64,000 nt of DNA from Candidatus Omnitrophota bacterium. Lineage in GTDB: Bacteria; Omnitrophota; Gorgyraeia; Zapsychrales; JAKLDJ01. The first letter of the stretch is position 1, and every line of letters begins with the position of its first letter. The position numbers and the translations under genes are program-made. Where the stretch lies: contig JAKLDJ010000001.1 in assembly GCA_022703585.1 (NCBI GenBank), positions 118,891-182,890 on the forward strand. The letters are read 5' to 3'. The notes beneath the pieces were generated by a model. That model had not been told where the DNA came from. It did not search any database and saw nothing but the letters and a program-made list of their open reading frames with translations. Below are positions 37,500 through 64,000 of the stretch, piece after piece.

Positions 37500-37531
37500 A
37501 ATTATTAGCGACGGGTGGCAGGGGTGGTATT

Positions 37532-37563: not shown

Positions 37564-37573
37564 AAAGGGGTAT

Positions 37574-40221: not shown

Positions 40222-40551
40222 CTACTGGCAAAACTTAAAAATCCTCTGGGTGTCCATAAAATCAACTTTGTCAAACTTCATGCCCACATCCCATGTTTGC
40301 GGGTTGGCGGGCCGGCTCCAAGCCACACGTCCGCTTAAATTCAGCGGTTCATGACCGTCGGGAAGCTCCACCAGCAAATCAATCTTGTCGTTTAAGAGAA
40401 ATCTCTCCTTAGTGGAGACTTTCGCGCCTGTCGCGGAGACATCTCTTAAGAAAACATTGGTACCGAAATCTGCCCGTTCGTCTTTAAACTTGACCGGGAA
40501 CCTAGCCATGAAACGATCGAAGACACGGCGATCATCAATGCCGATAACCAT
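40222..40551 (-). CDS. PilZ domain protein (c-di-GMP receptor)
   Basis: 109 aa with the RxxxR motif (RRVFDRF) and DxSxxG motif (DVSATGAKV). Confidence 0.75.
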   Translation of the reverse strand: MVIGIDDRRVFDRFMARFPVKFKDERADFGTNVFLRDVSATGAKVSTKERFLLNDKIDLLVELPDGHEPLNLSGRVAWSRPANPQTWDVGMKFDKVDFMDTQRIFKFCQ

Positions 40552-40661: not shown

Positions 40662-41036
40662 TTAAAAGGCTTTTTCAATTGCGGAGCACGAACCGCTGGC
40701 GACATCGGCAAACGTCATCCCCACCCGGTAAAAATCCGAACTGGGCAGCTGGCGGACCCATCGCACTTTTCCGACGGCTAAGATCGGCTCGCTGTCGGGT
40801 GTTAACGCCAATTCTATCGGCATCTTGGTATTGACCGGAATAAATTTGGTCGATAAAAATCCCACCCCGCCGCGACTGATGTCTAAAGTCAGACTGCTAT
40901 CGAAAGCGTTACCTTTCTTGCACACAACCGGGACCCGGCAGTCGAACCGGGTCGATTTTCTTTTGTCAGAATCTTGCACTTTGTTCCTCCAATTGAAGTA
41001 TAGCACCATTTTTTCCGAAGAAAGCGTTTTTTTCAA
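40662..41036 (-). CDS. PilZ domain protein (c-di-GMP receptor)
   Basis: 124 aa with RxxxR (KRKSTRF) and DxSxxG (DISRGGVGF). Confidence 0.75.
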   Translation of the reverse strand: MKKTLSSEKMVLYFNWRNKVQDSDKRKSTRFDCRVPVVCKKGNAFDSSLTLDISRGGVGFLSTKFIPVNTKMPIELALTPDSEPILAVGKVRWVRQLPSSDFYRVGMTFADVASGSCSAIEKAF

Positions 41037-41146: not shown

Positions 41147-44100
41147 TTACCCGCATTCCGCCTCTTGCGGAGAAAGTTCCGAATCCGGATTTTCCTTATC
41201 CGGTAATCCCTCCTCTTGAAACAAAACCCCGGCCTTGACCAACGCCCGGCGAAGAGGCTTAAACTTCTCGGTTGAAATAACTTCCTCAAAACGCGCGTTC
41301 AAAACTTGGTCACCCCTGATCATATCCATAACAACCCGCGCTCCGTCGGGAACGATCAAAACACAATCCAATACCACTTTAAGCGCGTCTTCTTGCCGGC
41401 TGCCCTGGCCGCATAACATCGCTCTGGCATGCCGCGGTAAAGCATTCCATTGGCGAATCAATTGATTCAATAGCTGCGACCCTGCGTCAGTATCGCGGAA
41501 ATTGTCGATGGCCTCACCCAGCAAAAGATGATTAAGAAATACCCTCGCGATTGATAAAGTTTTCTCAATAGGCATAAAGGAAATTAATATGACAAGCTCC
41601 TTTAATGCCCTGGGCTTATTGTGCGCAGGCTCTCCTTTTGAATAATAAATCCATAAGTATTGCGCAAATAATATCTGGTATTCGCGGGTCGCCGGCGAAG
41701 AGCTCCTGGCATCAAGAAGCAATGCTTTTCCGGTCCGCTGCTCGATGGCCGTAATTCGTTCCTGCGAATCGGTATGATGGCCAAAACTGCGCCGGGATAT
41801 AGACCTTCCTTCACGCAAACGTTCTTTCAGCCGCTCGACAATAGAATCTTCATCGCTGGATTCATCCTGGCGGGGAAGCAACCGGATTTTTTCTTTTCTT
41901 TCGATATCCATAGCGTGCTTATACAGGGCGTCGTCGGGAAATGGCCCGTTTTGAAGGCCCTGCGGATAATTCGCTTCTCGCCCCAGGGCTTCTTTTCTCA
42001 CGGCCAGCTGATAAATAACCGAATCCCTGTCGGGATAAAGATCAAGGCGGCCGGCCAGAAGCGTAAACCTAAGCTGGCGCCCAAGCGTGTAAATTCTCGC
42101 CGCTAAATTCACTCCCGCCGAACCTTCGTTTTTCATGGCGGCGTTGGTATTGCGCAATCCTTTTTCAAGGCGTTGACGGAGTTCTTCTTTGGTGCGGACT
42201 AACGAACGGCGGCGGCAACCGGGGACAACAAAATCCGACAATCGCTCGATATCCCGCCGCACGTTGTAGAGCCTGCCGTAACCGTCCAGTAATTTGCTTA
42301 AGATAATCCATTCTAAGGGGCCGAGCTTATAGTATTCAACGATTTCATCCAAACAGCATAGCTTCTGACCCACCGGTAAATTCCACCATTCCTTGGTCCT
42401 TAAACGGCAATCCAATCGCGCCAAGGCCTTTTGAATCGGCGCCCGCAGGGCCGTGCCTTCATCCAGCGCTTCATCTATATCGCCGGCGTCTCTTATTCTA
42501 AAGAATGCCATCCTTCGGGAAAATTGCAGGCGCAAGAGTTCGTCTTTGGGATTCTCCTCTACCATTTCGGCCAAGGCGACATCACTGTCGTCAAAGGGAT
42601 CTGCATATAATTTTGTTTCGGGGCCAAATGCCTGGTCCATACCATTCAGGGTTGCCTTGATGGCTACCTCAGTGATGGATATGGCCTGCTTACTGATACC
42701 CCAGAGATTACCGACACGTTCCTGACTCCAGGGTTGCCCGTCTTTTGTGCCTATGCCATGGCGCAGACCAACGATCAATCTCCTCCGAGGATCTTCTAAA
42801 GAGGCGATATGCCGGCGGGCAAGTTTGATTTTTCCGTTGACCTCTTGTTCCCTGTCCAATCTTTCTTCCGCATCCTCAAAGGTACGCTGAGGGATACATT
42901 CTCCTTCTTCCCGGTCATCATTCGAACCGCGCTTAGCGTCTAAAGAAACGACGGCTGTTTCCTTTTCCGCCTTACTTTTTCCGTTGTAATGTATTTTATT
43001 TCGATATTGAGAGATCTCACCTTTCATCCACCATTCCCAATAAGTCAAAAGTCCGTTTTCGAAACTTAAGTCAAATTTGCCTAATGCCCCGAGAAGGGCC
43101 AGGCGCCCGATAGCCTTCATCTCAACCCTGGAGATGCCTGCCCGCAGCAAGTCGGACCCATGCCGATTAAACATCTCCCCCACAAATCCTATATTATTTT
43201 TAACAATATAATCGCATATACGCCCCCGAAGGTTATTGTCTCCCAGCTGAAAAGCCCAAATGAGAATCCGCTCCTCGCTGCGGGAAAGATAGCAGCCCGG
43301 CTTAACCGGCCGGGCCATGATGCGCCTGGCCCTGGCGATGGCCTCGTCTTTGGGGCTTCCCTTGACCATCCCCACCATCACAATCGGCAAAAACATCAGC
43401 GGCCCGGCCTCGACGAAGGCCATGAAAATGGCCGAGGCGGGCCCGAGGGCAGAGGGAACAAAACATCCTAAATTCTGATCCTTCAGCTGGGCTTCCTGAT
43501 CTTTAGGCCGCTGCACCATCATGAAGGAGTACTCTCTCGAAATAAATATTCCCGGCCAGGTGGCGGCTTTTTTCATCTCCCCAAGCTCAAAACCGTTCAT
43601 TGCCAAAACGTTCAATGGAAAATCAATTTCGTCCCCTAAGAGAAAACCTTGCTTCCCAAATGATTGAGCAATCTTATTAGCCATCTTTCCAAAAACGCAA
43701 TCAGGCGCGATAGCAGAAAAAAAGTTCACAGAGTAACCCATGGAAATAATAAATCCTCTAACAATATTTTCGGGTATTTGCGAATCTTCGAACCCGAAGG
43801 GAATTAGTTGAAGATTATCTTTATTTCCGGGGCTCTTGGCTTCAAGGGTCGAAAACGCGGCGTCCATAATTTCTTTGCAGTAATACGACAAGGCTTGGGG
43901 TGAAAAAACCGGGTCAAAGGCGATCACACGCACCCCACGGCTGGCCAGTTCTATCTCGACAAAAAGATTGTCACCAGAACCGATTGACATGACCATATCG
44001 CCCTCCCTGATGGGAAGCTGGTCAACGATAGCCTTCGCGGTCGCAAAAAACGGTCCGTTGAGATCTTTGAGCGCCGCTAAAACCTCTCTCTTTCTTTCCG

Positions 44101-47100
44101 CAATACCTCGCTGCTGGGGCGAATAGGAAAAAATGTCACCTTCGAAGAAAGACCCCCGTCCCCGCATCATCCCCGCCACCGGCAACAACATCAGCGGCCC
44201 GAGGGCGAAGGGCAGCAGGAAGCCGTAGAGATCGTCTTCATCATCGTCATTCGATGAGGCCTCGGAATCAGTTGCCTCTGCCTCTTGCACATCTTCTCCG
44301 TGTTTTTTAACATCATCCCAATAAATTCTCTGCTCCATATTTCCCTTGCGTAACTTAAAATTATGAAACGTCTGCGCATTAATCAATCGGGCCTCTTGGT
44401 AACTGACAGCAATCGCCGAATCAGAACCCTTTTCTTGGATAACCGCGCTGGGGAAAAGCGCGCGCACATAAGAAATAAAATCTTGGTTATCCTGATCCTT
44501 ATTGACGAATACGGCTATTCTTGCCTTCTCAATCTTAAAATCTTTTAATTTCTCAACAACGCCGTCAAAATCCTGCCTTTCCTGGCCCGCCCTGATCCTT
44601 TGGATAACCAGATCTTGCGCATAATCTTCTTCCTCCCACTCGCCGCGCACGGCAACGACGATATCGCTTCCTAAATTCTCCGAAAGGATAATACTGTTAT
44701 CGCGAAAACTTGTACCGATTCTTAATAGAATATTGCTTCCTACATAATAAAGAGTTTTGCCCTTCCATTCTGACGTCCAGCCATCATCGATAGAATACCC
44801 GGCACCTGGAGCGACCACATTAACTCGGGAATATCTTCCTTTCTTCTCCTCAATTTTATGTTTTTTAACCGACTTTGAGCCGCCTTGATTCACAGCCCCA
44901 AAGAAAGCAACAACAAAATCAAGAAAATCTGCCAATCGTAAGGCCCGTATGGCATCGGATTTTCTTTTCTTTAATCCTGACCGTTCTGAAGAATATATCT
45001 GAACGAGTCTTTCTGTTTCTTCAACTGCATGTTTTTGAAACTCCAAGGCACGTACTTCTTCGCGAAGCCTTTCCCTTGTTGATCCGAGCTCTTCCTTTCT
45101 TCTCTCGCGTTCTTCATCGTCGGGATCATTACTGTTTACCCCGTTCCGTAAGCGACGAAACTCCTCATCCGCTTCTTCTATCTGTTGCATTTTTATCGCG
45201 ATCTTTCTTTCATATTCTTTTAATTGCTTTCTAAGAAAAGAGGGGCTGGAAGCAATCCTCAATCTATGCCTGATCGTTTCCATGCGTTTTGCGGTCGCTT
45301 CATGCTCCTTTTCTTTTCCCTTGGGAACATTGTAGCGGTACTTTTCATATTGCTTATCTAATGCAGTATAAAGGTCGCTTAATCTCTTAAGAAGGGTAAC
45401 ATTTCTCGAATCATATTCATCCGCCCACCGGATAACATCTTCGCTCTCAAAATCGGCGATGATACAGAAGTCCGGATCGCCCACGAAACCACTCATTCTC
45501 GTAATCCGCGCATGCATTTTCTTAAAGATGACCGGGATCGCGATCGTAACCGCCCGCTGGAGTTGCGCGCGAGTGAGCCGTCTAAATTCTTTGCGTACCT
45601 CCTGAACTTTTTCCGCGAAACCGTCTCGATCTTCATCACCCCTTAAATGCTGTTCATCCGTTAATAGAACAATGGCCTTCAGCATGTCAGTTTCTTGCTC
45701 AGAAAATTTCATGTTAGGCAATATTTTATTCCCAGAACGCCATCTTATCTGGCCGGAAAGACTGGGGATTATCGAGCAGATCGAAGCGAAGAAAAGCAGA
45801 TACCCGTCTTCTTCCTTAACCCGCCCATGTTTAATATCTTCCGTGAATCTAAAGACCGTTGTCATGGCTAAATCCAACTTTGAGAAAACATTAACGCGCC
45901 GATGAAAAAATGAATCAGACTCTTCTCTGTGCAGGGGGCTGAGTTCGTGAATCACAAAAGACAATAAACCACACCCTTTAAGGATATCGACCGCTTCCAC
46001 CAACCGTATCTTTGAATCCTTTTTCGTCCCACCCTTAACAAGCCGCTTAAAGAATTTGAGAAATTCATCGCTTCGGGCCACCCGGGCTTTTGTTCTGGTG
46101 GATAGACGATGGACGTAGGTCATGGCCTCGATATAATCCTCATCTTCCCTGAATCTTCTTTCAAGCATATTCACCACTTCCGAGGCTTCGCAATCCATGA
46201 CCCTGGCGTGTCTATCGCAGGGAAAATTGAACCGGTAACTGTATTCATTTCTCAATATCTGTAGCGTCCGATTTTCTCTTAATCTTTTTTTGATCTCTTC
46301 TAAACCAAGACTATTGCGCTCATTCACAAAGTCAATAAGCGGGGTATAAACATAATTGTAATAGCCCTCTAATAACCCGGCCGCGCCGGTTTGATAATGC
46401 AAGGTTTGCAGGGCCACTTCGATTTCCAAAATTAACCGGATCATTTCCGGCGTGCCGGCGCTATCCAATGATTCAATCTCGTCCGCAGCCGCCAGAATAG
46501 CACGTTTGGCCTCGTACTCGATTCTTTGAACATACATTAATTCTTTAACGATGGCAGTCACCGTCTTGGTATTTAAGAAAACGCGTCTTTTATAGGCATA
46601 GGAAGGAATCGGCTCTTCAAAGGCAAGCGCAAGAGAAACATGGATATCTTTTTTTGTTGCCGTCGGGGATAATTGATAATCAATCTCTTGAATAACGGTC
46701 CGTCCTTGAGCAACCTGGTTGACACCATTACGGTCCCGGTCAGCCGCTTCGCCGCCCCGCCAGCCATAATGCATAATGGCGGTCGTCACCGCGCGTGTCG
46801 TATAGCGGGCATCGGAATGGTCGTTTTCACGAGTCCCGCGGTATCCGGTATCAAGAACGGAAAAGCGCGGGACAATAAACCCGTTAGAAAGAATGGATAA
46901 ATGGGGGGCGATTATTTCATCCTCGCCGTGAAGGGCTAAATTCATGTCATCCAGTATCGCTTCTAGTTTTTCCTGCGATATTTCCAGATCAAATTCTTCG
47001 AGGTATTCTTTTAATTCACCAACCAAAAGAGGCTCCGTCAATTCTTCCATGTGCAGCCCCTCAAGCTTCTCCGACAAAGGAACAAGCCGGTGCCCGGTGA

Positions 47101-56100: not shown

Positions 56101-59100
56101 TTTTTTTGCCCCGGTAGGACCCTAAAATATTTTCGATAAGAATCACAGTGCCGTGTTCAACAACCGGTTCGCCGGCTACAGACCCCTCACTCTCAATATC
56201 ATCGATCTTTCTCGCATACGAACCTGCGGTCGTGCCGTCCGGTCCGCGATGAAATTCCGCGATCACACACCGATACGATTCGCGATAAGTCTCCCCTAAA
56301 GCCGCGCCGTTTAATCCTTTTACCCTGTTGGTATGCAATCCCGCGACAGCCTGTCGAATGGCAATCGGATTTCCATACTCATCCCTAAAACCCGTCCCGG
56401 CATCGAAAAGCAAAAACTGAAAGGCATACTTTTCTCCAAAATCTCCAAACCTCTTAACCCGGCGAACTAACAGGGCTCCCCGGCCGCCCCCGTGCTGTTG
56501 AAGATTCTCTAGAGAAGCGCTCATGGCCCGTTTACTTGAGGACATCGCAAAATAATTCGCCTCAGGAAAGACGCTCCGAGAAAACGCCACATTGACAATC
56601 GTCCAGAAGAAGTCTGATAACTCGTGCGCATTACCGGTTTTTCCGGCAAAACCCAGCTCCCAAAGCTGCTGCTGTATGCCAAAAGAAAAATCTTCGCCGG
56701 CTTCTTTTCCCAAAACTTCCTGCCAAACCATTGGCAGAATTTTCTGAACGTCCGGATCTCCGTCAAAAACTGCCCCCATTGATAGGTCTTCCGTTATCAC
56801 CTCCCCGCTTCTGGCCTGGCTTCGCCCAAGGGCTTCGCCGAGGCGAGTGGGCCGAGGCTCGCCCGCCTCGGCTTTTGCCTTCGTCGAGGCCGGGTCTTTC
56901 CGACTATCGCCGGAAAGACGGCCCAGCATAAACAAGACAGGCAGGATAAAAACCGATAAACCGGGAATCAAGGCCCACAACTCCAGCTGTTCCGGCTGAG
57001 CGCCCCGGCCTGGCTCCGGTTGAACGCCCCGGCTTTGTTCCTGCCAATGGCTATTGTCAATCACCATATCAAAGACGGGATAATCGCGCAGCATGCTGCC
57101 GATGGACGGCATCGACAGCTCATCGACAACCTCCGTTATTCTTACACCAGGATTATCGAGGCGGATATTCTCCTGGCGTGTTTTTGGGTCAGCGTACACG
57201 AGCACTTTGACGTCAAAGACAAGCGGAGTATATTCTTCCAAAAACAGCGCGCTCCACCCCTCGACAACAATCATGCGTACGGTGCTGTTTCTTTGCAATT
57301 GCTCAATCTGCCCGGTGATCCTTAACATCGGCTCTTCGAGAGTAACGCTCCGGGAATCGGCATGGAGAACAACAACCCCATCCAACTGCTGCTCCAGAAG
57401 TCCGGCTATGTGCGTCTTACCCGTCGCCGTCTTTCCTGTCAACGCCACATACAGAGGCCGGTTAGCCCGAGACCTTTTGGAAAGATTTTTCATGTGTCTG
57501 AGAGCCACTTCCACTGAAATAGGTTTCCGGGAAAACTTCCGCCACATCGCCATAAGGCCCGCGCGGAATGCCGCAAAATCATCGCCTTTCGTTATCTCCA
57601 AAATCCTGTCAAGTTTAGAGGTCAACAAATACCGTTCATTCACCGGGGTGGCATCGATAAGCTTTCCGATGAGATTCTGCGCAAATCCCGGTTCCTGCTG
57701 GCGCAGGCGGATCAATTCGCGGACAAGAAACCTGACATTAAGCGTTCCTAAATCTTTGTCAAAAGGCGTTAAAGTATTCAGCGCGCAGATAATCACTTTA
57801 TACAAGTAAGGCCCGTACTCCCGGGGCAGCGCGTTAACCGATTCCGCGATAGCGGGAATATCTTTAGGATCCTGGGCATAATAGACACGCTCATAAACTA
57901 ATTCACTGATCGGCAATACCCGATTTCCGGATGTATTGATCATTCCCGACAGCGGCAGAAAGATAAGCCCGGGCAGGAAACAACCGAGCCTTTCTGCGCC
58001 GGGATCTTTGACAATACTCTGGCTATCGCGCCTCATGATGGCGACGGGGACACTGATTGAATCCGACGCCGCATGGATGTAGCGCGAGCCGCTTCGAGTT
58101 GTCGCCTTGACGGCAAATAACCCTCCGTTATCCAAATAATAATAAGGTGTCAGCCGGGCCGGGCCTTCCATGGTACGGTAGGCGCATGATGCCGCGTCAT
58201 AATAAGTCCACGGCATCTTCCGCGGCTTGAGGGCTTCCTGGATAACATATGTTTCCTTATCTCCCAGGGCCTGGCGGATCAACCGCCCTACTTTGTCATG
58301 AGATTCTCCATCCAAAAACCACAAGTTCATGCCCCACGATTGGTTGGTGGGCTTAAGCACAAACTGCCGTTGTCTTCTTTTAAGATTCTTTATCTCTTCC
58401 CACTGCCGAACACCCAGCTCTTTTAATTCCTCGGGTATGTACGCGTTATCCACCACCCACGTTTTGGGTATAAGCCCCATCAAGATCCGGTAATGTTCCC
58501 TACCCAATTTTTGTTCAAACCAGGGATTGTATTCCGGAGAGTGAAACAGCGCCAAGGGGATCTTGCCTTCGCAAAAAGCGCTTAAGCCGGGCACTAAGGT
58601 GATACGCCCTTCCTTCGCGAGGCGGATTATTTCTTCGACAGAGGAATTACTGTGGCGGTCTTTCACATAAAAACAGCGGTAAACGGTTAATCCGGATTCC
58701 TGCCGGAGCAACCGGATGAATCCGTCATCCGTCTGCGGCGGAGCCCTGGTATCGTCGAGTAAAAAGGCTGTCGCGTTAATGCCGACGGACTGCAGCTCTT
58801 GGGTAAAATATTGAATCTGCCCGAGGAATTTTCTTGTCCGTTCATTGGCGGCAAAAATAATCTTTTTATCTTGAAGTGAGCCGCTGTCTCCCGCACTCAA
58901 GACTCTTTGGGCAAAACTCTTAAGAAAATCCTCTCCGGTGAGGCCCAAAACCTCAAAGCCGCTTTCCTGATAGATCTTCTGGAGCAGATACACCAGGCCC
59001 AGGCCGTAAAAAGAAGTTTCAAGCTCAACCATCCCCATGCCGTTTTCGGTCATAACCAAATCCGGCCGGATAAAGATATTCCCCGCCCTATTGGCATCAT

Positions 59101-62100
59101 CCAGCAGGCCCTTGTGATCAAGCCGAACATGGCACTCCGACGACCAAATGTAACGATACCACCGTGAATCAACCGGCAAAAGAGTCCGGTCGTGAACAAG
59201 GTCCAGGCATGCCGCAAAAAATTCCCTCAATGCCTGGCAGGCATGCTCCAGGAGAGCAGCCTCTTGTTGGCTGATATATAACGGCTCCGGACTGACACGA
59301 AACGGCACGTTTTCGACAGAAATAATTTCGCCGCTTCTGGAAGGATAAATCCATCCCTCCGGCCGGTGAGAGGCCTCTTGATCCATCGCGGCCAAAACCG
59401 GATCGTTTTCTTTGATCCCCGCAAGCGAGAATGGAACCGAAAACAGAAACATTAACGACCCGGGCAGAATAAAACAACCCACCGAATGGTCAGTTGACAC
59501 TTCATCCCCGTCGTCTTTCCTGCCGGAATGCCGGCGGCTTAAAACATAATAATCAAATTGACGATACCCGGGCATCACATCTAAAACGCCCATTATGGTC
59601 GCGCGCAATTTCATCATAATCAATTTTAGCGCGGCGCCGTTAGAGAACATTTCTGACATGGCCTGCAGCGGCATCGCCGCGTATCCGACAATCGGCAAGC
59701 CGGACACCACAACCCAATACCAGCGAAAGACCACATCGCGATTGCGCGCCGCTGACAGCAGGGTAACGACAAACCTGAAGATACCGGGAATAAAGCATCC
59801 AAAGATTGCCAGCCTGACCGGCGCGGACCAGTGAAAGCTATGCTCGATAAAAATCATCCGGTACAGGTCACCCGTCGCGTATGCGCTCAACGCCCCCGCG
59901 ATCACATCGCCGGGGAATTTAAAAACGGTGTGCCAGAAAAATACCAGCGAATAGGTCAGCCATTCTTTGGTTTTTGTGGCGGCGTGAAAACGTTCGTATT
60001 CCGCGCGCGGCATCTTGCCGGCATCGTGCATTTTCTCAACGTCTTCCAAAAGCCAGGTATTGATTTTAAGAATTGTTCCCGCTTTAAAATCTCCCCACGA
60101 GCGCGAACGATAGCTGTTTTTAATCAGCGGCCAAAGCAGGCGGCCGACATGCCGCCATGTTTGCGTGTTAAAAATAAGCGCGCGGCTTATCTTGTCGACA
60201 AGCGGAATTCCGTCGAGAGTGGCAAGCAGGACATACAACGGCGTATGCCGTTTCAGACGCTGTGCCGTCGCGGGTGAAATATCTTCACTCGCCAACCAAT
60301 AGCGAATCATCGTATCTTTAATATAAAAGTTTTTAGAGACACGGCCGGTTATCCGCCCCCAGAAATCAAGCCGGCTGGCATCGTAGATGCCGCACAGTTC
60401 TTCATAGAAAGCAAGGCGGGCACCCATCCGTTCTGCCTCTTCGCCGCGCATGTGGTCGCCGATATAGTCCGACAGCGCTGCGGGGTCAAGCCGGTCAAAC
60501 ATCACCCGGTAGTTTCCGGCTCGAAACGCCCTTAAAATCGCCGCCGCGTGATAGGGATAGAAAAAGACCATAATCGGAATTGCCGGCGTGCGGTCGACCC
60601 AGACAAATTCCCCCGAATGCCGCCGCATAATATTCTTATAGGTCTGCGCCGGGCCGTCGAAGCGGTCATCAATCTGATAGAGATGCTCGTTAAACCCGGC
60701 CTTTTCCGCCAGCAGGCGAAAACGCCGAAGGTTTTCTTCGTACATCTTGCGGTTTGCCTGGCCGCTAAAACCATTGCCGCCGTCAATCCATTCCACCACT
60801 TCACCGTAGGCGCGATGGCTGACGCTAAAGAATATCGCCCGCGAACGCGCCACCACCGGCGCGCCGACCTCATGCTCGGCAACATCGGCGAGCATGTCGC
60901 CCACGACCATATTGAGCAGCACCGCTTCCTTAATATAGCGATAGGGAAAACGCGATTGATAGGCTACGGCGTGGGAAAGATTTCTTAAAAATTCTTTGAT
61001 GGCGCCGCTTAGGCCCGACAAGGCATACACCCGTAGCGCCACCGGAGTACCGGTTTTAAGGTCAACCGCCCTGTAGACGCTGGCGCCAAGGCCGCTACCC
61101 GCGAAACTTTCAATCCGGTATCGCCGTTTTTCTTTTCTTAAAATATCGCGAAGGTTAAAGCCTGAGGCATGATGAAACGCGTAAGAAAGCCGCTCCTCAT
61201 CAATGACTTCGGTATCCAGTGCGACGGTTTCCCCGCGGACAAATAAACGCTCATCCGTATCTTGCATGCTGACTTCCGCGTCCACAGACTCTTTGATTGC
61301 TTGACTTCGCCGGCGTTCGGCTAAACCCGCGATTAAACCTTGCAACTCTTTTACGTCAGACGTTACCCCCAGCACCGATTCGTCATTAACCCAATATTCC
61401 ACATCTTCCTGGTGGGTTGTGTAGAATACGACCGGGATATTTATTTTTGCCTTCATCATCTCCTGAAGTAAACAGACACCACAACCATCAGGCATATCAA
61501 AATCAAGAACGACCAGGCCAATTCGCTGTATGCCTTTTTCAATCTTCTGCCATGCCTCTTGACAGCCATTGGCATGAACCACTGTATAGCCTTGGGCCGT
61601 CAATATCCTATCCAAATGTCTGTGCACATCCTCGGAATCATCGACAACCAATATCTGTAAATGATCTTCAAAAGACGCCGTCATCCCCGTCCGGCAAAGC
61701 CTTCTTGAGGCTTTGCCGAGATCTCGGCGTTCCGACCCCTCGTCGGAACGCCGGACCATCCCCACAACAGGTAAGCCCACTAGCGGCAGGAAGATAAGCC
61801 CGGGCAGGAAACAGCCCAACGATTCAGGTTCACATCCAAAGGCACGGTAGTAGTGCTCCATCTCTTTGTCGGACACCTTGGTATCAAGCTTGTAATCGGC
61901 GCGCGCGGCAGCCAAAAGCTCCGCCAGGAATTGTCGTCGTTCTGCTTTGGGAATTTTGGTCACGCGGCTGATGTCACGGTTAGACAGCGCGTAAATCATC
62001 GCAAGCATTCTTTCCCGTTTGTGTTTGGTGAGGGTGCGGATCATGGTGCGCAGGTCTTTAACTTTGATCATCAGAAGAACAGTATCGCAGGCGATAAATG

Positions 62101-64000
62101 CGAGGGAACGTTCGGAGAGAAAAACGGTTTTATAGCAACGGCCATGCCAATAGGTCGGCGCGCCTCTGACAAAATTATTGCGCGCTGCCCAGTCACGGTA
62201 AACCTTATTAAATACCGCCTCATCATTGGCAAAACCTTTTACATTCCCCATATGCGCCTGGTGCGCAAGCCGTGTATAACCAACCATAAAACGGCTTACC
62301 TGCAATGAATCATTAATAATGGCGATGGCGATATCCAGGCTATCCAGGGCTTCCTGCCGTGCCTTCTCATCGCTTTTGGATAACGGGGCGATTCCTAATA
62401 ATAATCCTTTTTTAAGATGCCGGTCCACGATGCGCTGCACCATATCCTGGGCGTTTAAGATGCGGTTTCTGATGCCCATAAAATCCGGCTCGTTTAAAAA
62501 CGGCCAGGTAAATACATGGCGTAATCCCGCCCTGGCTTCGCCGGGACGAGGCTCGCCGTTTTCCCGGCGGCCCGCGCGATTTTCTGTGCCGATGGCCTCC
62601 GTGAACCGGTTCTCAGAAATATCCTTTCGAATCTTTGTCATTCTTGTCAACACCCTCCGGAACCGGGTCTGGGAAATTTCGCGCAGTTGAAAACGCAGAT
62701 GTTCCAAATAGGCAATCTCGCCGGCGATCTGTCCTAAGCGCACCTCGATTGACGGTATGCCCGCCGAGATACAGGCTAAGGCCGGCTTGGCTCTTTGCAC
62801 CCTAATAAAGTTGAGAGCCATTTCAAGTTCTCTGCGGCAATCCTGCTTTTCCTCCACGCGCACCCCTTCTAAGGAAATGAGCAGGGCTGCGATATCGCGC
62901 TCGATACTGCCGGTATCAAGCGGCGCGGCCGCAGCCGCCCGGGCGTGGAATCGTAAATGATTTTCAATATGCCGCAGCGTTACTAAGAATTCCTTCATCG
63001 CCTTGTGGTCGGCGGCCAGAGAGGCAAAAATCTTATCCAGAATTCTGAACCAGCGGTACAGCGTCTGGGTCTGGGGCCGCTGCTCGAGCACGGTTGCACC
63101 GGCCTTCCTGACGTAGCGGCCCATCAATACGGTGATTTTTCCGTCCGGCTCTTGGTTAATTTTTGTTTTTGATTTTCTGCGTTGTAAGCGTTCCTGCAGC
63201 GCTTGCTTTCGCTGGTGTGCCAGTTTTCGGGAAATGCCGTCTAAGATCCAGACCGCGGCCATTTCGTTGCCGGCATCAATAAAGGCAATAATCTCCTCTG
63301 CGCGGGCAATGGCGCTGCTACGAATATTTCTTTTAAGCGCGCCGATTTGCCGCCGGTCCGGCAATGCGCCGGTGTAGCGCTGGTAGGCCAAGCTCAAAAG
63401 GCGGCTGTGCATATCCCGTACCTTGGTGTGCTTTCGCTTAAGGATGGCCTCTTGCGGCAAAATCGTTTGCCGGTACGCCGAGCGGTCCGTGCGCCGCGGT
63501 TTCTTTCCGTCTTCGTCTAACGCTCCCAAAAGCGGCAGAAACATTAAAAACGGCCCGGTCCCGACGAGGCCTAAAAGATTAAAGAGGGCCGAGGCGGACA
63601 GGAACGCGAGCGGCGATAGGAACATAAGGGCCCGAAGCGTTTCAACTTCTTTCCAGTCATCGTCCTCCTTCGCCTCATCCCTCGCCTCATCCCAAGCCTC
63701 CTCCCGGCCCGGAAGAATGCTGCCTCTATAGTCAACATCTTTTTCCGTCGGAAAGATTTTTTCAGGTTGGACAGCGCCTGACCAGCAAGGATCAAAAGGG
63801 TTGGAAAGCGGCCACCATGCTATAGGTAGCTCTTGGCCTTTACTGAAACGCTTCCAGTCATCTGCCACAACAATAAAGATTAAAGGAGTTTTATCGGATT
63901 GCACTGAATCCGGTTGAAAGCCTATCCAGTCGCCTATCATCATGTCAAACCAAGGCTCCCACCAAAGGTGTTTGACGCTGTTTCGCCGCTTGAGAACCTC
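41147..64000 (-). CDS. giant multidomain membrane protein (at least 7,617 aa; N-terminus lies beyond the window)
   Basis: A single stop-free minus-strand frame from 64000 down to the TGA at 41147. The first ATG is at 63943, but the same frame stays open upstream to the window edge (…EVLKRRNSVKHLWWEPWFD MMIGD…). Several catalytic and signalling domains are recognisable and are listed as separate features. Confidence 0.85.
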   Translation of the reverse strand, partial: EVLKRRNSVKHLWWEPWFDMMIGDWIGFQPDSVQSDKTPLIFIVVADDWKRFSKGQELPIAWWPLSNPFDPCWSGAVQPEKIFPTEKDVDYRGSILPGREEAWDEARDEAKEDDDWKEVETLRALMFLSPLAFLSASALFNLLGLVGTGPFLMFLPLLGALDEDGKKPRRTDRSAYRQTILPQEAILKRKHTKVRDMHSRLLSLAYQRYTGALPDRRQIGALKRNIRSSAIARAEEIIAFIDAGNEMAAVWILDGISRKLAHQRKQALQERLQRRKSKTKINQEPDGKITVLMGRYVRKAGATVLEQRPQTQTLYRWFRILDKIFASLAADHKAMKEFLVTLRHIENHLRFHARAAAAAPLDTGSIERDIAALLISLEGVRVEEKQDCRRELEMALNFIRVQRAKPALACISAGIPSIEVRLGQIAGEIAYLEHLRFQLREISQTRFRRVLTRMTKIRKDISENRFTEAIGTENRAGRRENGEPRPGEARAGLRHVFTWPFLNEPDFMGIRNRILNAQDMVQRIVDRHLKKGLLLGIAPLSKSDEKARQEALDSLDIAIAIINDSLQVSRFMVGYTRLAHQAHMGNVKGFANDEAVFNKVYRDWAARNNFVRGAPTYWHGRCYKTVFLSERSLAFIACDTVLLMIKVKDLRTMIRTLTKHKRERMLAMIYALSNRDISRVTKIPKAERRQFLAELLAAARADYKLDTKVSDKEMEHYYRAFGCEPESLGCFLPGLIFLPLVGLPVVGMVRRSDEGSERRDLGKASRRLCRTGMTASFEDHLQILVVDDSEDVHRHLDRILTAQGYTVVHANGCQEAWQKIEKGIQRIGLVVLDFDMPDGCGVCLLQEMMKAKINIPVVFYTTHQEDVEYWVNDESVLGVTSDVKELQGLIAGLAERRRSQAIKESVDAEVSMQDTDERLFVRGETVALDTEVIDEERLSYAFHHASGFNLRDILRKEKRRYRIESFAGSGLGASVYRAVDLKTGTPVALRVYALSGLSGAIKEFLRNLSHAVAYQSRFPYRYIKEAVLLNMVVGDMLADVAEHEVGAPVVARSRAIFFSVSHRAYGEVVEWIDGGNGFSGQANRKMYEENLRRFRLLAEKAGFNEHLYQIDDRFDGPAQTYKNIMRRHSGEFVWVDRTPAIPIMVFFYPYHAAAILRAFRAGNYRVMFDRLDPAALSDYIGDHMRGEEAERMGARLAFYEELCGIYDASRLDFWGRITGRVSKNFYIKDTMIRYWLASEDISPATAQRLKRHTPLYVLLATLDGIPLVDKISRALIFNTQTWRHVGRLLWPLIKNSYRSRSWGDFKAGTILKINTWLLEDVEKMHDAGKMPRAEYERFHAATKTKEWLTYSLVFFWHTVFKFPGDVIAGALSAYATGDLYRMIFIEHSFHWSAPVRLAIFGCFIPGIFRFVVTLLSAARNRDVVFRWYWVVVSGLPIVGYAAMPLQAMSEMFSNGAALKLIMMKLRATIMGVLDVMPGYRQFDYYVLSRRHSGRKDDGDEVSTDHSVGCFILPGSLMFLFSVPFSLAGIKENDPVLAAMDQEASHRPEGWIYPSRSGEIISVENVPFRVSPEPLYISQQEAALLEHACQALREFFAACLDLVHDRTLLPVDSRWYRYIWSSECHVRLDHKGLLDDANRAGNIFIRPDLVMTENGMGMVELETSFYGLGLVYLLQKIYQESGFEVLGLTGEDFLKSFAQRVLSAGDSGSLQDKKIIFAANERTRKFLGQIQYFTQELQSVGINATAFLLDDTRAPPQTDDGFIRLLRQESGLTVYRCFYVKDRHSNSSVEEIIRLAKEGRITLVPGLSAFCEGKIPLALFHSPEYNPWFEQKLGREHYRILMGLIPKTWVVDNAYIPEELKELGVRQWEEIKNLKRRQRQFVLKPTNQSWGMNLWFLDGESHDKVGRLIRQALGDKETYVIQEALKPRKMPWTYYDAASCAYRTMEGPARLTPYYYLDNGGLFAVKATTRSGSRYIHAASDSISVPVAIMRRDSQSIVKDPGAERLGCFLPGLIFLPLSGMINTSGNRVLPISELVYERVYYAQDPKDIPAIAESVNALPREYGPYLYKVIICALNTLTPFDKDLGTLNVRFLVRELIRLRQQEPGFAQNLIGKLIDATPVNERYLLTSKLDRILEITKGDDFAAFRAGLMAMWRKFSRKPISVEVALRHMKNLSKRSRANRPLYVALTGKTATGKTHIAGLLEQQLDGVVVLHADSRSVTLEEPMLRITGQIEQLQRNSTVRMIVVEGWSALFLEEYTPLVFDVKVLVYADPKTRQENIRLDNPGVRITEVVDELSMPSIGSMLRDYPVFDMVIDNSHWQEQSRGVQPEPGRGAQPEQLELWALIPGLSVFILPVLFMLGRLSGDSRKDPASTKAKAEAGEPRPTRLGEALGRSQARSGEVITEDLSMGAVFDGDPDVQKILPMVWQEVLGKEAGEDFSFGIQQQLWELGFAGKTGNAHELSDFFWTIVNVAFSRSVFPEANYFAMSSSKRAMSASLENLQQHGGGRGALLVRRVKRFGDFGEKYAFQFLLFDAGTGFRDEYGNPIAIRQAVAGLHTNRVKGLNGAALGETYRESYRCVIAEFHRGPDGTTAGSYARKIDDIESEGSVAGEPVVEHGTVILIENILGSYRGKKMDWLPSPALLGYSKALCAILRPEGKIKRVFRLVKRVFRHSQDTNSSNPRPESNEPDGRLLSVAPAAWVWAILGAGALVYLFLCSRHKETLPSICKPSEMVRILLEIIVAAMILSVALAIIFRWNKKNGVNHGSSAVSQKDDEKSSSRFSFLRYRPISGRTLTSLLIAGILTFVGFVRHSSYGSLKCLFEDTALKCLLRQPLNHDNVQYFKILATPSVVSALYLFHMASRNVFNKMGGKKMNNLILELFQDRKRLVVFISSVWCLTEIKKYLSSVLRIETTIPLGPTESQAVNIIVLLASGIIAFWGMKYLSFKPLFNKRGKGTDPAVTPVCPPAVPRHVPLLSGTDQSVKGGHTQDGAGSVPNEISMDAARRYLAWLGQASKIDIRFPIQVLADTQVSEHMTPGEIMGILRERNMYCRSMDEEKLQGVVARIVYLQTHIAPLIVRYWQQRYPGENIVSVSVYGSWPYNDNPSDLDIDIIVEGDAYALRSIDREYLEKHFSSLDIPVKDISFVVFGLENIEQGKGQGTEIEGGRVHTNVLETTTALLYVRNIPAFGRDFIPLENYRQHLNAIAADFLKAALQRIKKIDLKNEESDGKRMRKVIARLHSASVLLEMVDGRARGYSRTLLNLRNTPEQEAISESQVTSLWLKMFALLRQRVSQQDMYSGGTNPANSYQENDQPGGGLLSVVPLVWALAILGAGASVYLFLSRRYKEILPLIYKHGEELHKNGFISDYYWKSRKAMKEEMRLLFIMAGIILGVFLTELPDAKSCISNPLVFMITISVAAPLSLTGLHFIGHIVPAIIFNGWNKLKKIKYATDIQRIIILLVPAFIHAMVAVPGWVIASKNRENDVVFTAGFAFFAFHFIALSYCLLRSDGPAIKTILDERKNKESRRSGKRYPCPKNDQPDGRLLSVVPLVWALAILGAGALAYLFLQRQHKKVLPPIRNFIVSRAPPLATFKLLRYRVQSRVPRISTGSVGRRFQDETFNLAVAGGKRFAPSDEISSRLRRDGLVVWIHAAAASVLNNSRKPGTVSTLLRRVIAGIFIVLMSSVISVVPAWSAPQETASQQTQRSIPTKQAAYAKIRELAQAFEYSPQIANELVALAPALDIPRLLETQDEMERLELLVAAIRNSFSPHEDSSLGWDLSEVLRLRKSNCLGYVQLFYIYGRAVGLHINPIYVFTSNEFNMEHAATMADIGLLSYIVDLSVTESAYISPGFNFHSVYRNPQGYLGSLEMLFPGGKDGGLIFKLQSDELPSFYTTIRQGNAESIVSWIYTNRGDTYFRNGDLEQALLTFTRALEINPYYEIAWSGLGIVYLRMGELEAAEECFRTALAKNPEYARPHYDLGLMLENAGDYEGACAHFLKVLELRPDDTAAMNWAGVCYLERGMYDEARPYLLNAIAIDPDPMYPYFHLGRISFAQDKPEEALAYFYLAQERDAGVIDELPLELQGPLSAAMDTTGVNTLQKQIESMAYGILGREYGFAKNDELALGYFAASIEVDPENAGAFFELGLFYLERGEYDRAIENYLEAIRLLPEPWEAYFDIGRAYFSQDKKEEAFVYFYIAYQKNNQVFDVLTPEFQGKIRALRDDPVAQAQLLERRAQLEEGLRAFALPGFFETALFLSSLLGLLLASVPMAGMVKEGDAIRPPGNRGVRMDLVLNRLLAGGWGLWGNMTQEDFQREVNEEFHSGYEPCPELQSIFGAPKKTRVQFYQRKESPTAGPLHFIWAGDDYSSVKIYLSSQELVDRLIKTFRNHAKEALELIVFHERKEKKLGSHMQAWVLTLKENLSMALALEELFDQIQSQDDFIDTRIELIPSRDERQQREALVEMIMSILSGYFKERAVVINHGSVGRETDMAGRFDIDMTVQFADDFDRDEENARLKIYLDTALARQGYFIDHVKGYLPAHGKQMFTFLLKDRQGIPVTRVEISMSESMKTYPEMFNAQIAQIRENFGEKGLQEVLSDILVMKYILQKIVNSYKKVHGGLRGIGAEQLIIQSGGFDESGWQVKTPGSLYKAMALIYFYGYNTTGRRIRPLSEVREKFKICDLEGSNCLDTLNEWSWRRLVHAAKIYVEGKRFNQSFAHPDELAYALKDAFDYNQKAVRVCELRGPRDIHQILAQGQGYDFERIGRDGYYVYFYTEESFSRFEQSGLLQFITAVLSDDDREKPVPLIESTSGYVMRDGIMDRRKIKEEALKRARKIKLNKKDDDHEVIKELGNIYVYVDERIFEFFKMKQSDIEYAIQGGSNDCLNIDHQGVFYRGLREREKKCGSIVIALADESGLFIMPGGSDGLVIVPPQIKEFDPKDALRLMSKLIANQLFDMAGRYYEEDGRTFELESVEDLIIPFHDSDSAGSILPKYFTLKRILGARHPITVKMDERINKGFYPGKDRTGSSRVKEEFPERVAKLRKAYVLASGTKSDIEQAYGILIEVLNEFIDARETWSRSLWLDYWSRPAMYVLFAYAKEFPERAVLNHFSRWLDWHHSCMYPEEKAGHLKKEWNYKLLQFSLKIGQSMTDEELLTVLEYMLDSNKFYHIEEAHFTLLDVLARQNRGQLIDILFSMLLSKQLTRNWINRGDSTKNIEAALGHLLTEDDFERLVELHENAEEILKQRRMAAKAEAKNKKSDPSKQKGEIGEENEGQDEDLDEKLDENRDEDLDEKPGEGEGVYGYKSGLRGIMVLIGGKKALAFLSQGLDNPITEYGVFRTEYEHDLEALLKREIMQGNLELIEFIRRRITTPLTAHIERLAAKKEAGDCKEGERPGRDDDLIKAAMAHMATYLWLTVDVDLYKKLSSLDEEGCLDNGHDKERFAGIQNKEVRRFYALRLAKMIEVATTDKALKNVLFAFCSLHGESPESDEQGLWFKTNDDWIDYESYGKTLRVLGDLMAELAEESRDRKEREELFVVALKMHSKALDNFYYRIPSQVSDAIKDLRQYRGFVIRKANQGDMRAIRVLLTDRSFMKELVGEGRLILNAEALARAFLDHHFNRILSSYSDMVKLFEKRVTGHRLVPLSEKLEGLHMEELTEPLLVGELKEYLEEFDLEISQEKLEAILDDMNLALHGEDEIIAPHLSILSNGFIVPRFSVLDTGYRGTRENDHSDARYTTRAVTTAIMHYGWRGGEAADRDRNGVNQVAQGRTVIQEIDYQLSPTATKKDIHVSLALAFEEPIPSYAYKRRVFLNTKTVTAIVKELMYVQRIEYEAKRAILAAADEIESLDSAGTPEMIRLILEIEVALQTLHYQTGAAGLLEGYYNYVYTPLIDFVNERNSLGLEEIKKRLRENRTLQILRNEYSYRFNFPCDRHARVMDCEASEVVNMLERRFREDEDYIEAMTYVHRLSTRTKARVARSDEFLKFFKRLVKGGTKKDSKIRLVEAVDILKGCGLLSFVIHELSPLHREESDSFFHRRVNVFSKLDLAMTTVFRFTEDIKHGRVKEEDGYLLFFASICSIIPSLSGQIRWRSGNKILPNMKFSEQETDMLKAIVLLTDEQHLRGDEDRDGFAEKVQEVRKEFRRLTRAQLQRAVTIAIPVIFKKMHARITRMSGFVGDPDFCIIADFESEDVIRWADEYDSRNVTLLKRLSDLYTALDKQYEKYRYNVPKGKEKEHEATAKRMETIRHRLRIASSPSFLRKQLKEYERKIAIKMQQIEEADEEFRRLRNGVNSNDPDDEERERRKEELGSTRERLREEVRALEFQKHAVEETERLVQIYSSERSGLKKRKSDAIRALRLADFLDFVVAFFGAVNQGGSKSVKKHKIEEKKGRYSRVNVVAPGAGYSIDDGWTSEWKGKTLYYVGSNILLRIGTSFRDNSIILSENLGSDIVVAVRGEWEEEDYAQDLVIQRIRAGQERQDFDGVVEKLKDFKIEKARIAVFVNKDQDNQDFISYVRALFPSAVIQEKGSDSAIAVSYQEARLINAQTFHNFKLRKGNMEQRIYWDDVKKHGEDVQEAEATDSEASSNDDDEDDLYGFLLPFALGPLMLLPVAGMMRGRGSFFEGDIFSYSPQQRGIAERKREVLAALKDLNGPFFATAKAIVDQLPIREGDMVMSIGSGDNLFVEIELASRGVRVIAFDPVFSPQALSYYCKEIMDAAFSTLEAKSPGNKDNLQLIPFGFEDSQIPENIVRGFIISMGYSVNFFSAIAPDCVFGKMANKIAQSFGKQGFLLGDEIDFPLNVLAMNGFELGEMKKAATWPGIFISREYSFMMVQRPKDQEAQLKDQNLGCFVPSALGPASAIFMAFVEAGPLMFLPIVMVGMVKGSPKDEAIARARRIMARPVKPGCYLSRSEERILIWAFQLGDNNLRGRICDYIVKNNIGFVGEMFNRHGSDLLRAGISRVEMKAIGRLALLGALGKFDLSFENGLLTYWEWWMKGEISQYRNKIHYNGKSKAEKETAVVSLDAKRGSNDDREEGECIPQRTFEDAEERLDREQEVNGKIKLARRHIASLEDPRRRLIVGLRHGIGTKDGQPWSQERVGNLWGISKQAISITEVAIKATLNGMDQAFGPETKLYADPFDDSDVALAEMVEENPKDELLRLQFSRRMAFFRIRDAGDIDEALDEGTALRAPIQKALARLDCRLRTKEWWNLPVGQKLCCLDEIVEYYKLGPLEWIILSKLLDGYGRLYNVRRDIERLSDFVVPGCRRRSLVRTKEELRQRLEKGLRNTNAAMKNEGSAGVNLAARIYTLGRQLRFTLLAGRLDLYPDRDSVIYQLAVRKEALGREANYPQGLQNGPFPDDALYKHAMDIERKEKIRLLPRQDESSDEDSIVERLKERLREGRSISRRSFGHHTDSQERITAIEQRTGKALLLDARSSSPATREYQILFAQYLWIYYSKGEPAHNKPRALKELVILISFMPIEKTLSIARVFLNHLLLGEAIDNFRDTDAGSQLLNQLIRQWNALPRHARAMLCGQGSRQEDALKVVLDCVLIVPDGARVVMDMIRGDQVLNARFEEVISTEKFKPLRRALVKAGVLFQEEGLPDKENPDSELSPQEAECG
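42650..42760 (-). other. sigma70-region-4/LuxR-like helix-turn-helix near the C-terminus of the giant protein
   Basis: PWSQERVGNLWGISKQAISITEVAIKATL resembles the r4 HTH (ER.V..L..G.S...I....I...RV.QI...AL). Confidence 0.3.
50200..50620 (-). other. minimal Pol-beta-superfamily nucleotidyltransferase module 2 in the giant protein
   Basis: VVINHGSVGRETDMAGRFDIDMTVQFADD. Confidence 0.5.
51400..52330 (-). other. tetratricopeptide (TPR) repeat array in the giant protein
   Basis: About 8 consecutive 34-aa repeats with the W-LG-Y…A…F…AL…P consensus (e.g. AWSGLGIVYLRMGELEAAEECFRTALAKNPEYA). Confidence 0.7.
52380..52800 (-). other. transglutaminase-like cysteine-protease core in the giant protein
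   Basis: KSNCLGYVQLFYIYGRAVGLHINPIYV … EHAATMA matches the C-x-G-[FY]-x-x-L-F-x-x-x-x-R-A-x-G-[IL] Cys block followed by the His block of transglutaminase-like peptidases. Confidence 0.5.
53301..53399 (-). repeat. intragenic ~100-bp repeat, copy 3
   Basis: Encodes NDQPDGRLLSVVPLVWALAILGAGALAYLFL. Confidence 0.7.
53981..54077 (-). repeat. intragenic ~100-bp repeat, copy 2
   Basis: About 90% identical to copy 3; encodes NDQPGGGLLSVVPLVWALAILGAGASVYLFL. Confidence 0.7.
54350..54800 (-). other. minimal Pol-beta-superfamily nucleotidyltransferase module 1 in the giant protein
   Basis: hG[GS]...D.D motif: VSVYGSWPYNDNPSDLDIDIIVEGD. Confidence 0.5.
55853..55950 (-). repeat. intragenic ~100-bp repeat, copy 1 (encodes PDGRLLSVAPAAWVWAILGAGALVYLFL TM module)
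   Basis: DNA-level similarity to copies at 53981-54077 and 53301-53399 (shared kaagaaaagatatrcaagcgcacccgcgccgagaat…ctcaaaagcctgcc). Each copy encodes the same hydrophobic module. Confidence 0.7.
57040..57520 (-). other. P-loop nucleoside/nucleotide-kinase-like module in the giant protein
   Basis: Walker A LYVALTGKTATGKTHIAGLL, followed by a Walker-B-like hhhhD (VVVLHAD) and a lid region. Confidence 0.5.
58000..59360 (-). other. circularly permuted ATP-grasp / glutathionylspermidine-synthase-like amidoligase module in the giant protein
   Basis: Blocks PLYISQQEAALLEHACQALREFF … RPDLVMTENGMGMVELETSFYGLGLVYLL … FVLKPTNQSWGMNLWFLDG … YVIQEAL follow the order of the CP-ATP-grasp family. Confidence 0.5.
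61290..61660 (-). other. CheY-like response-regulator receiver domain embedded in the giant protein
   Basis: LQILVVDDSEDVHRHLDRILTAQGYTVVHANGCQEAWQKI…GLVVLDFDMPDGCGVCLL…IPVVFYTTH carries the phospho-acceptor Asp in the conserved position. Confidence 0.7.

Follow-up and report, generated by a model that had tools for sequence, protein, structure and literature searches.

Stereotyped linker peptides between the modules of a giant Omnitrophota gene segment, probably the end of the published 85,804-codon reading frame

The stretch analyzed here is a 64,000-nucleotide window of a Candidatus Omnitrophota contig (GCA_022703585.1, JAKLDJ010000001.1, positions 118,891 to 182,890 of the forward strand). 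It ends inside a giant gene on its minus strand, and the segment of that gene contained in the window consists of protein-sized modules separated by linker peptides of two recurrent types. With high confidence, we take this segment to be the C-terminal 7,617 residues of the 85,804-amino-acid (aa; 257,412-bp) open reading frame (ORF) described by West-Roberts et al. (2023; bioRxiv 10.1101/2023.11.21.568195) in an Omnitrophota genome from wastewater, at that time the longest reading frame known from bacteria or from prokaryotes as a whole. The gene has thus been found a second time, and what could matter here is the internal linker grammar.

Reading frame and identity of the gene

A six-frame scan of the 64-kb window showed that one minus-strand frame stays open for 7,617 codons (41150-64000) before a stop codon at 41147-41149 closes it; the second-longest stop-free stretch within the window has 1,172 codons. 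Given the base composition of the window, an open run of this length has a probability of approximately 1e-184. Using a codon table compiled from 14 neighbouring genes, we compared the three frames in sliding 300-nt windows. The annotated frame scores highest in 151 of 151 such windows, and its mean codon score (0.155) is near that of the training genes (0.185). Therefore, the frame is native and coding over its entire length, which confirms the uninterrupted 22.8-kb frame noted in a preliminary description of this DNA made from its letters. The first in-frame ATG lies at 63943 and the frame is still open at the window edge, and to the longer protein which that description anticipated, three public assemblies assign 85,803 residues. 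The window covers the last 8.9% of the gene, with the remaining ~78,000 codons lying outside it. One public call (P0001; 7,465 aa) begins at internal Met153 (window 63544), inside the first of the linkers listed below, and is not joined to the 85,803-residue gene. Thus, annotation of the giant gene varies between sources.

41147..64000, minus strand: 3' end of the giant gene, 7,617 codons plus stop; called as 85,803 residues in public assemblies

Seventeen public contigs encode a protein identical to that of the GH94 neighbour (37574-40000, minus strand). In three public loci, the gene just upstream of the GH94/PilZ neighbourhood is called as a single product of 85,803 residues: ENA ERZ761563 NODE_2 (1.17 Mb), JGI 3300010429 Ga0116241_10000010 (0.82 Mb) and NCBI GCA_035453785.1 DAOTDT010000001.1 (1.61 Mb). 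The ENA contig is identical to the window at 22,427 of 22,427 compared bases. The exact GH94 protein is labelled 'Candidatus Omnitrophota bacterium' in NCBI nr, which bears out the Omnitrophota origin that had been suggested for the window, and the exact GH94 and MnmG neighbour proteins sit on contigs of up to 1.61 Mb; the organism name given for MnmG breaks off after 'Candidatus'. Counting the stop codon, the called product corresponds to (85,803 + 1) x 3 = 257,412 bp, which matches the published length of the record ORF. West-Roberts et al. (2023) report that Omnitrophota giant genes are followed at their 3' side by pilZ, then by genes for solute-binding proteins, ABC transporters and glycoside hydrolases. 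Here, two PilZ genes are followed by GH94, a protein with a carbohydrate-binding module (CBM) and a HINT end, a solute-binding protein, two permeases, an MFS transporter and GH2.

40662..40979, minus strand: PilZ gene 1, directly downstream of the giant gene (PF07238, E 6.6e-11; called in public assemblies)
40222..40551, minus strand: PilZ gene 2 (PF07238, E 7.7e-14; called in public assemblies)
30469..40000, minus strand: downstream carbohydrate genes (GH94, CBM+HINT protein, solute-binding protein, two ABC permeases), a context published for Omnitrophota giants

Since the length is exact and the phylum and context agree, we regard the identification with the record ORF as very likely to be correct; the text of the paper gives no accession number. 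Several of the features by which West-Roberts et al. (2023) recognize giant genes are likewise found here. The 85,803-residue call in three public assemblies exceeds their threshold of at least 30,000 codons, the exact GH94 protein in NCBI nr places the host in Omnitrophota, hydropathy identifies approximately 24 hydrophobic, transmembrane-like segments in the 7,617 aa, and pilZ, transporter and glycoside hydrolase genes lie downstream. Other hallmarks given by the same authors are a divergent SecA-DEAD domain, an N-terminal C39 or S8 peptidase and a type II secretion-like locus upstream, whose place would be within or ahead of the ~78,000 codons beyond the window. A 2026 preprint (bioRxiv 10.64898/2026.06.07.730766) catalogues 916 Omnitrophota proteins of at least 10,000 aa and defines a class of giants termed 'multi-enzyme metabolic clusters' (Class 1), in which many domain families occur and none dominates. 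This is also what we find in the segment, where receiver, TPR, sigma-like, nucleotidyltransferase-like, P-loop and transglutaminase-like cores occur once or twice each. Thus, the gene is real and already published, and multi-enzyme, membrane-associated Omnitrophota giants are also a described kind; the preliminary description of the gene as 'unprecedented' and of a 'type not described before' does not hold.

Linkers and modules of the segment

Eleven stereotyped hydrophobic linkers lie between the modules, eight of type A and three of type B. Type A is rich in Pro and Gly, starts with (L/V)GCF.LPG and ends with (P)LMFLP..GM, after which charged residues follow. Type B reads (E/Q)PDGRLLSV..W..AILGAGA..YLFL followed by basic residues, and at the DNA level it is a 176-nt direct repeat family (D1) with three copies. 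The hydrophobic linkers are 17-36 residues long and contain several Pro and Gly residues.

63524..63631, minus strand: type-A linker 1, aa 124-159 (hydropathy and recurrent motif)
61751..61819, minus strand: type-A linker 2, aa 728-750, LGCFLPGLIFLPLVGLPVVGM (recurrent motif)
59414..59485, minus strand: type-A linker 3, aa 1506-1529 (recurrent motif)
57938..57988, minus strand: type-A linker 4, aa 2005-2021, LGCFLPGLIFLPLSGM (repeat D3 and recurrent motif)
56909..56986, minus strand: type-A linker 5, aa 2339-2364 (recurrent motif)
51185..51274, minus strand: type-A linker 6, aa 4243-4272 (recurrent motif)
44165..44230, minus strand: type-A linker 7, aa 6591-6612 (recurrent motif)
43355..43474, minus strand: type-A linker 8, aa 6843-6882 (recurrent motif)
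55826..55945, minus strand: type-B linker 1, aa 2686-2725, EPDGRLLSV..AILGAGA..YLFL and basic residues (repeat family D1)
53951..54070, minus strand: type-B linker 2, aa 3311-3350 (repeat family D1)
53276..53392, minus strand: type-B linker 3, aa 3537-3575 (repeat family D1)

The first of these had been read as a transmembrane anchor, and is one of the eight repeated type-A linkers, not an anchor at the N-terminus. The motif GCF.LPG occurs four times in the window protein, compared with 0.002 occurrences expected from shuffles. Likewise, a search for pairs of 10-mers with at least 7 identities returned 17 pairs, compared with 1 in a shuffle, and these are mostly linker-to-linker or TPR pairs. 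The linkers also agree in their codons: the first Pro is encoded by CCC in 4 of 4 cases and the second by CCG in 5 of 5. Because the copies share position-specific codons, both here and in a relative described below (L003), the linkers appear to descend from one unit through copying. Two of the window's linker motifs seem, by eye, to be kept in the closest relative, P0002. Neither West-Roberts et al. (2023) nor the 2026 preprint mentions these linkers or motifs.

To assign the modules, overlapping 1,150-aa tiles of the segment were scanned against Pfam and NCBIfam, both halves were compared with PDB sequences, and single modules were rescanned against Pfam at E<=10. Apart from the module M1, which is described in the next section, the segment contains the following.

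61403..61654, minus strand: CheY-type receiver, aa 783-866 (PF00072, E 1.9e-13, 51 bits, cut-off 30.2; PDB receivers to E 1e-6; NCBIfam)
60401..61198, minus strand: Gly-rich-loop region, aa 935-1200, previously called kinase-like (unsupported)
59621..59983, minus strand: hydrophobic multi-helix block 1, aa ~1340-1460 (hydropathy)
57989..59410, minus strand: orphan module, aa 1531-2004, previously called a circularly permuted ATP-grasp (not supported)
56987..57928, minus strand: P-loop module, aa 2025-2338, Walker A GKTATGKT at 57413-57436 (AAA_16/AAA_18/Zeta_toxin, E 0.01-0.04; dephospho-CoA kinase, E 0.02)
55946..56908, minus strand: orphan module, aa 2365-2685 (no Pfam match at E<=10, no homologues)
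55181..55798, minus strand: hydrophobic block 2, aa 2735-2940 (hydropathy)
54101..54865, minus strand: nucleotidyltransferase-like module 1, aa 3046-3300, core GS..DLDID at 54665-54718 (NTP_transf_2, E 0.045; Polbeta, E 0.057)
53486..53878, minus strand: hydrophobic multi-helix block 3, aa 3375-3505 (hydropathy)
52544..52747, minus strand: transglutaminase-like core, aa 3752-3819 (PF01841, E 6e-4, 20.3 bits, under the 23-bit cut-off; weak)
51356..52318, minus strand: TPR array, aa ~3895-4215 (TPR_1, E 1.4e-41, and many TPR families)
50462..50668, minus strand: nucleotidyltransferase-like core 2, aa 4445-4513, HGSVGR..DIDM (TIGR03671, archaeal CCA nucleotidyltransferase, E 3.9e-5, far below cut-off)
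44231..49903, minus strand: unannotated stretch of ~1,900 aa with no linker, largely helical by eye (no family match in Pfam, NCBIfam or PDB)
43475..44158, minus strand: orphan module with a Rossmann-like GSG motif, aa 6615-6842 (no Pfam match at E<=10)
42647..43111, minus strand: sigma-70-like module, aa 6964-7118, then a 500-aa tail to the stop (TIGR02937, E 5.8e-8; SigB chain, E 0.035; Sigma70_r4, E 0.049)

The mosaic of hydrophobic segments and soluble modules seen in the preliminary description is borne out by these scans and by hydropathy, as are two of its domains, the receiver and the TPR array, both of which are solid domain predictions. Its C-terminal helix-turn-helix is better described as a sigma-70-like module: the match to TIGR02937 covers model positions 34-161 of 165 and is suggestive, although its 32.5 bits lie below the cut-off of 42.9. 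For its P-loop kinase, we find weak P-loop profile matches at aa ~2177-2220. The two nucleotidyltransferases are similarly weak. Profile support for the first is marginal, and this module is shared with relatives P0010 and P0013, with 28-35% identity to P0010; the match for the second is suggestive of a nucleotidyltransferase-like core. What had been named a transglutaminase-like Cys protease is represented by a weak core below cut-off. Two assignments find no support. The Gly-rich loop at aa 935-1200, proposed as a kinase or pseudokinase, has no Pfam match at E<=10 and no PDB sequence match. The proposed circularly permuted ATP-grasp at aa 1531-2004 has no CP_ATPgrasp, GSP_synth or Alpha-E profile match at E<=10 and no homologues were found for it; its AlphaFold single-sequence model, with a predicted local distance difference test (pLDDT) score of 35.6, is unusable, and an RPD..E.ET-like motif is seen in it by eye. 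By eye only, aa 6615-6842 could be a methyltransferase.

The tile scans against Pfam and NCBIfam detected no carbohydrate-active or adhesin domain among the 7,617 residues, and no confident protease domain in the segment, the transglutaminase core being below cut-off. In the long unannotated stretch the only recurring motif is a short acidic tandem repeat, EENEGQDEDLDEKLDENRDEDLDEK, at 48128-48202 (minus strand), which is DNA repeat family D2.

Module M1 and its relatives

Between the first two type-A linkers lies a helical module of about 550 aa, M1, which is the sole block common to all relatives.

61826..63490, minus strand: conserved ~550-aa helical module M1, aa 171-725

M1 has 17 matches among 1.84 billion representative proteins, 14 of them at E<1e-30, and these are mostly giant ORFs or fragments. 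A 12-sequence alignment shows invariant columns LYRW.R and F.S..S..F and the consensus WPFL.EPDF, PRYWRARLYK..FISERS. Its AlphaFold model has a pLDDT of 85, and no structural relative of it was found. The relatives surround M1 with wholly different module sets, and in each lineage M1 is flanked by the host's own type of linker. These linker types are ASSP, SSSPAE or DNGG, whereas that of the window gene is hydrophobic and rich in Pro and Gly. In P0008, [ASGT]SSP occurs 23 times compared with 0.35 expected; in L003, [ASG]SSP occurs 15 times compared with 0.24 expected; and in P0005, DNGG occurs 6 times compared with 0.01 expected. The segments between motifs in the relatives are mostly ~170-890 aa long. 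Like the window gene, relatives from other samples are open across 12-16 kb.

In L003, the inter-linker segments hold complete B12-binding and radical SAM domains and complete SucD and SucC, indicating that linker motifs sit between domain-complete units and not within them. The L003 linkers share the codons TCC-AGC-TCG-CCG-GCG-GAA. Nine of 12 copies use TCG for the third Ser, a codon that makes up 7% of the Ser codons when 2.7 kb of the ORF are sampled, and 11 of 12 use CCG for the Pro, compared with 45%. The M1 sub-family and the linker punctuation are additions beyond published giant-gene work.

Several further observations concern the relatives. At 8978-11632 of L003, the SucD-like and SucC-like units (alpha, then beta) are fused with no 'SSSP' linker between them, placing a central-metabolism enzyme inside a giant ORF. 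P0006 (aa ~300-440) and P0008 (aa 456-627) carry M50/site-2-protease-like modules by eye (HExxH ... LDG-type motifs), an observation that bears on whether such chains are processed. Sigma-factor-like modules are seen by eye in P0008, P0004 and P0002. Relative L001 (CAYNSZ010000007.1) is labelled 'uncultured Planctomycetia bacterium', whereas the window genome is Omnitrophota; either the M1 family spans the Planctomycetes-Verrucomicrobia-Chlamydiae (PVC) phyla or the label of this metagenome-assembled genome is imprecise.

Possible roles of the linkers and comparison with known systems

We lean, with moderate confidence, toward a reading in which the linkers act as kinked hairpins or interfacial anchors that hold the row of modules on the cytoplasmic face and also mark the seams of module accretion. 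The gene would be translated as one chain, its short Pro/Gly-rich hydrophobic linkers would dip into the cytoplasmic membrane without crossing it, and the ATP-dependent and regulatory modules would thereby be kept in a row on the cytoplasmic side. The linkers would be copies of one ancestral unit, marking where modules were joined as the gene grew, and the two PilZ genes and the downstream sugar-uptake genes would belong to the same conserved neighbourhood. Receiver, P-loop NTPase, nucleotidyltransferase and sigma-type modules require cytoplasmic partners or nucleotides. We favour this reading because the linkers are short and rich in Pro and Gly and because the recognizable modules need such partners. 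For instance, all that lies between the putatively ATP-using block at aa 1531-2004 and the P-loop module is one hydrophobic linker of 17 residues, of which two are Pro and two or three are Gly, and this linker appears too short and too kinked to form a membrane-spanning helix. The 2026 preprint independently interprets 'TM-only' giants as proteins held at the inner membrane, most of whose mass lies on the cytoplasmic side.

A number of points weigh against the anchored-row reading. West-Roberts et al. (2023) predict mostly extracellular domains in giants and favour a role at the prey cell wall. The membrane segments were assigned from hydropathy alone, and the flank-charge polarity of the linkers (19 versus 9, p = 0.09) is not significant and carries no weight. 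Most modules are orphans, and describing them as cytoplasmic in type relies on few, weak domain calls. The modules discussed here cover only 9% of the gene, and its match to the published ORF is one of length, phylum and context, made to a text that lists no accession.

The main alternative, possible though doubtful, is that the chain is a polyprotein, cut at or near the linkers into at least some fifteen proteins within the segment, including the sigma-70-like module, so that the gene would be an operon in one frame. The linkers might then, just as tentatively, be recognition sites of a protease that co-evolved in each lineage, and recombination seams for the gain and shuffling of modules as well. 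A recurrent short motif does lie between protein-sized units, and it does so in each relative examined (P0008, L003, P0005); homologous M1 is bounded by a different linker type in each lineage; and the inter-linker segments contain complete domains (B12-binding and radical SAM; SucD and SucC). Sigma-like modules behind a hydrophobic segment would also be reminiscent of transcription factors that are kept at the membrane until regulated intramembrane proteolysis frees them. The DNGG motif resembles the double-glycine sites cut by C39 peptidases. West-Roberts et al. (2023) propose autoproteolysis of giants by C39 or S8 peptidase domains, the cleavage points being unknown. However, the segment has no confident protease domain, a 2,300-aa stretch of it has no linkers, short Ser/Pro or hydrophobic linkers may be plain hinges or anchors, and their shared codons are equally explained by copy-and-paste assembly without processing.

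According to the published hypothesis, the segment would be displayed outside the cell as a predation effector that helps to bind and digest prey cell walls. We consider this unlikely. Glycoside hydrolases and sugar importers do lie in the neighbourhood, West-Roberts et al. (2023) predict mostly extracellular localization and note TPR domains, and giant-ORF peptides are reported to be 3-fold up in attached Velamenicoccus archaeovorus cells (Seymour et al. 2023; PMC10066038). Nevertheless, the phospho-receiver, P-loop NTPase, nucleotidyltransferase-like and sigma-like modules need cytoplasmic partners or nucleotides, the 7,617 residues contain no detected carbohydrate-active or adhesin domain, and West-Roberts et al. 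themselves call some predicted localizations 'highly unlikely'.

It is less likely still that the segment is a machine for peptide or protein modification, as had been suggested, with a circularly permuted ATP-grasp amidoligase, a transglutaminase-like peptidase and nucleotidyltransferases acting jointly on a substrate. The weak transglutaminase core, the two nucleotidyltransferase-like cores and the RPD..E.ET-like motif at aa 1531-2004 are what speaks for it. Since the proposal leans mainly on the ATP-grasp call, for which the profile searches returned nothing and the block remained unfolded in the model, it is left with little basis. In addition, these modules are set apart by linkers and unrelated modules, dozens of further modules lie in the gene, of which the segment makes up 9%, and the relatives carry entirely other module sets around M1. 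Finally, an assembly chimera, a pseudogene or a set of separate genes whose stops vanished by sequencing error is barely credible: one gene caller did start its product at Met153, but sequence and 85,803-residue call agree across contigs of 0.8-1.6 Mb that were assembled independently (ENA, JGI and NCBI), the codon signal stays in frame throughout a stretch whose stop-free probability is negligible, and relatives in other samples are open as well.

Whichever role the linkers have, they bear on a practical problem. West-Roberts et al. (2023) could not divide giants into units, because the cleavage points were unknown. Lineage-specific linkers at protein-sized spacing provide concrete candidate boundaries, so that the question of one protein or many products becomes testable, and they offer a rule for splitting giant ORFs before structure prediction. 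M1 provides a sequence handle on one rare sub-family of giant genes. Should the linkers prove to be processing sites, which we think possible but doubtful, Omnitrophota giants would be bacterial polyproteins from which dozens of enzymes and regulators of ordinary size are cut, among them a sigma-like factor kept at the membrane.

Other features of the window are recorded here as observations. Of its 33 ORFs of at least 150 aa, 27 are encoded by the minus strand, and almost all 2-kb bins show negative GC skew; both agree with the layout of one strand per replichore reported for complete Omnitrophota genomes. A MnmG/GidA gene lies at 18564-20444. Genes of this type are often origin-proximal. The protein at 33882-37340 (minus strand) has a HINT end, as is common in polymorphic toxins and in proteins that process themselves. 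At 24227-27553 (minus strand), a TPR-only protein stands beside a TPR plus GH2-like protein downstream of the sugar-transport genes, and TPR is the sole repeat array in the giant-gene tail too. Two short minus-strand proteins (548-1531 and 15096-15854) have DUF748/AsmA-like N-terminal regions; AsmA-like proteins are tied to intermembrane lipid transport. A small cluster at 5169-12078 resembles those for ribosomally synthesized and post-translationally modified peptides (RiPP-like). It comprises an NTP_transf_5 and peptidase S24 protein (5169-6935, plus strand), an ABC-2 permease and ATPase, an HPr-kinase-C-like protein (8547-9551), a radical SAM and SPASM enzyme (9767-10816) and a GT2 fused to a PqqD-like domain (10819-12078), and looks like a peptide-maturation system.

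Among known systems are the peptide-modification operons reportedly described by Iyer et al. in 2009, which combine a circularly permuted ATP-grasp, a transglutaminase-like protein and Alpha-E. The window gene shares with them only its weak transglutaminase-like core, whereas ATP-grasp and Alpha-E are undetected, the parts are not adjacent, and there is one ORF instead of an operon. Viral polyproteins, such as those of picornaviruses and flaviviruses, also encode protein-sized units in one frame, and their cleavage has been demonstrated. The giant resembles them in this arrangement and in having short stereotyped motifs that differ by lineage, but it is approximately 30-fold larger, its segment has no confident protease, its linker copies share codons, and its cleavage is only a proposal.

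The giant protein of Velamenicoccus archaeovorus LiM (39,678 aa, 42 predicted transmembrane helices), as presented by Seymour et al. (2023; PMC10066038), is likewise the product of an Omnitrophota giant ORF in which hydrophobic segments are many and annotated domains few. It is a different gene from a different organism, and the likeness is one of description. Peptides of this protein were detected, according to that source; therefore, such giant genes are expressed. Similar too are the Class 1 giants of the 2026 preprint, in which many domains tile one chain, with receiver, methyltransferase, histidine-kinase and radical-SAM content and a 'TM-only' topology. That catalogue is based on Pfam, to which most of the window segment is invisible, and the words linker, motif, cleavage and polyprotein are absent from the text of the preprint. 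Closest of all is the 85,804-aa ORF of West-Roberts et al. (2023), with its 'Archaeovorin-type' giants, which agrees in gene length, phylum, hydrophobic segments, TPR and enzyme-like modules, and PilZ/transporter/glycoside hydrolase context. The paper differs from the present account in having no description of the C-terminal segment, M1 or the linker motifs, and its ORF otherwise appears to be the same gene.

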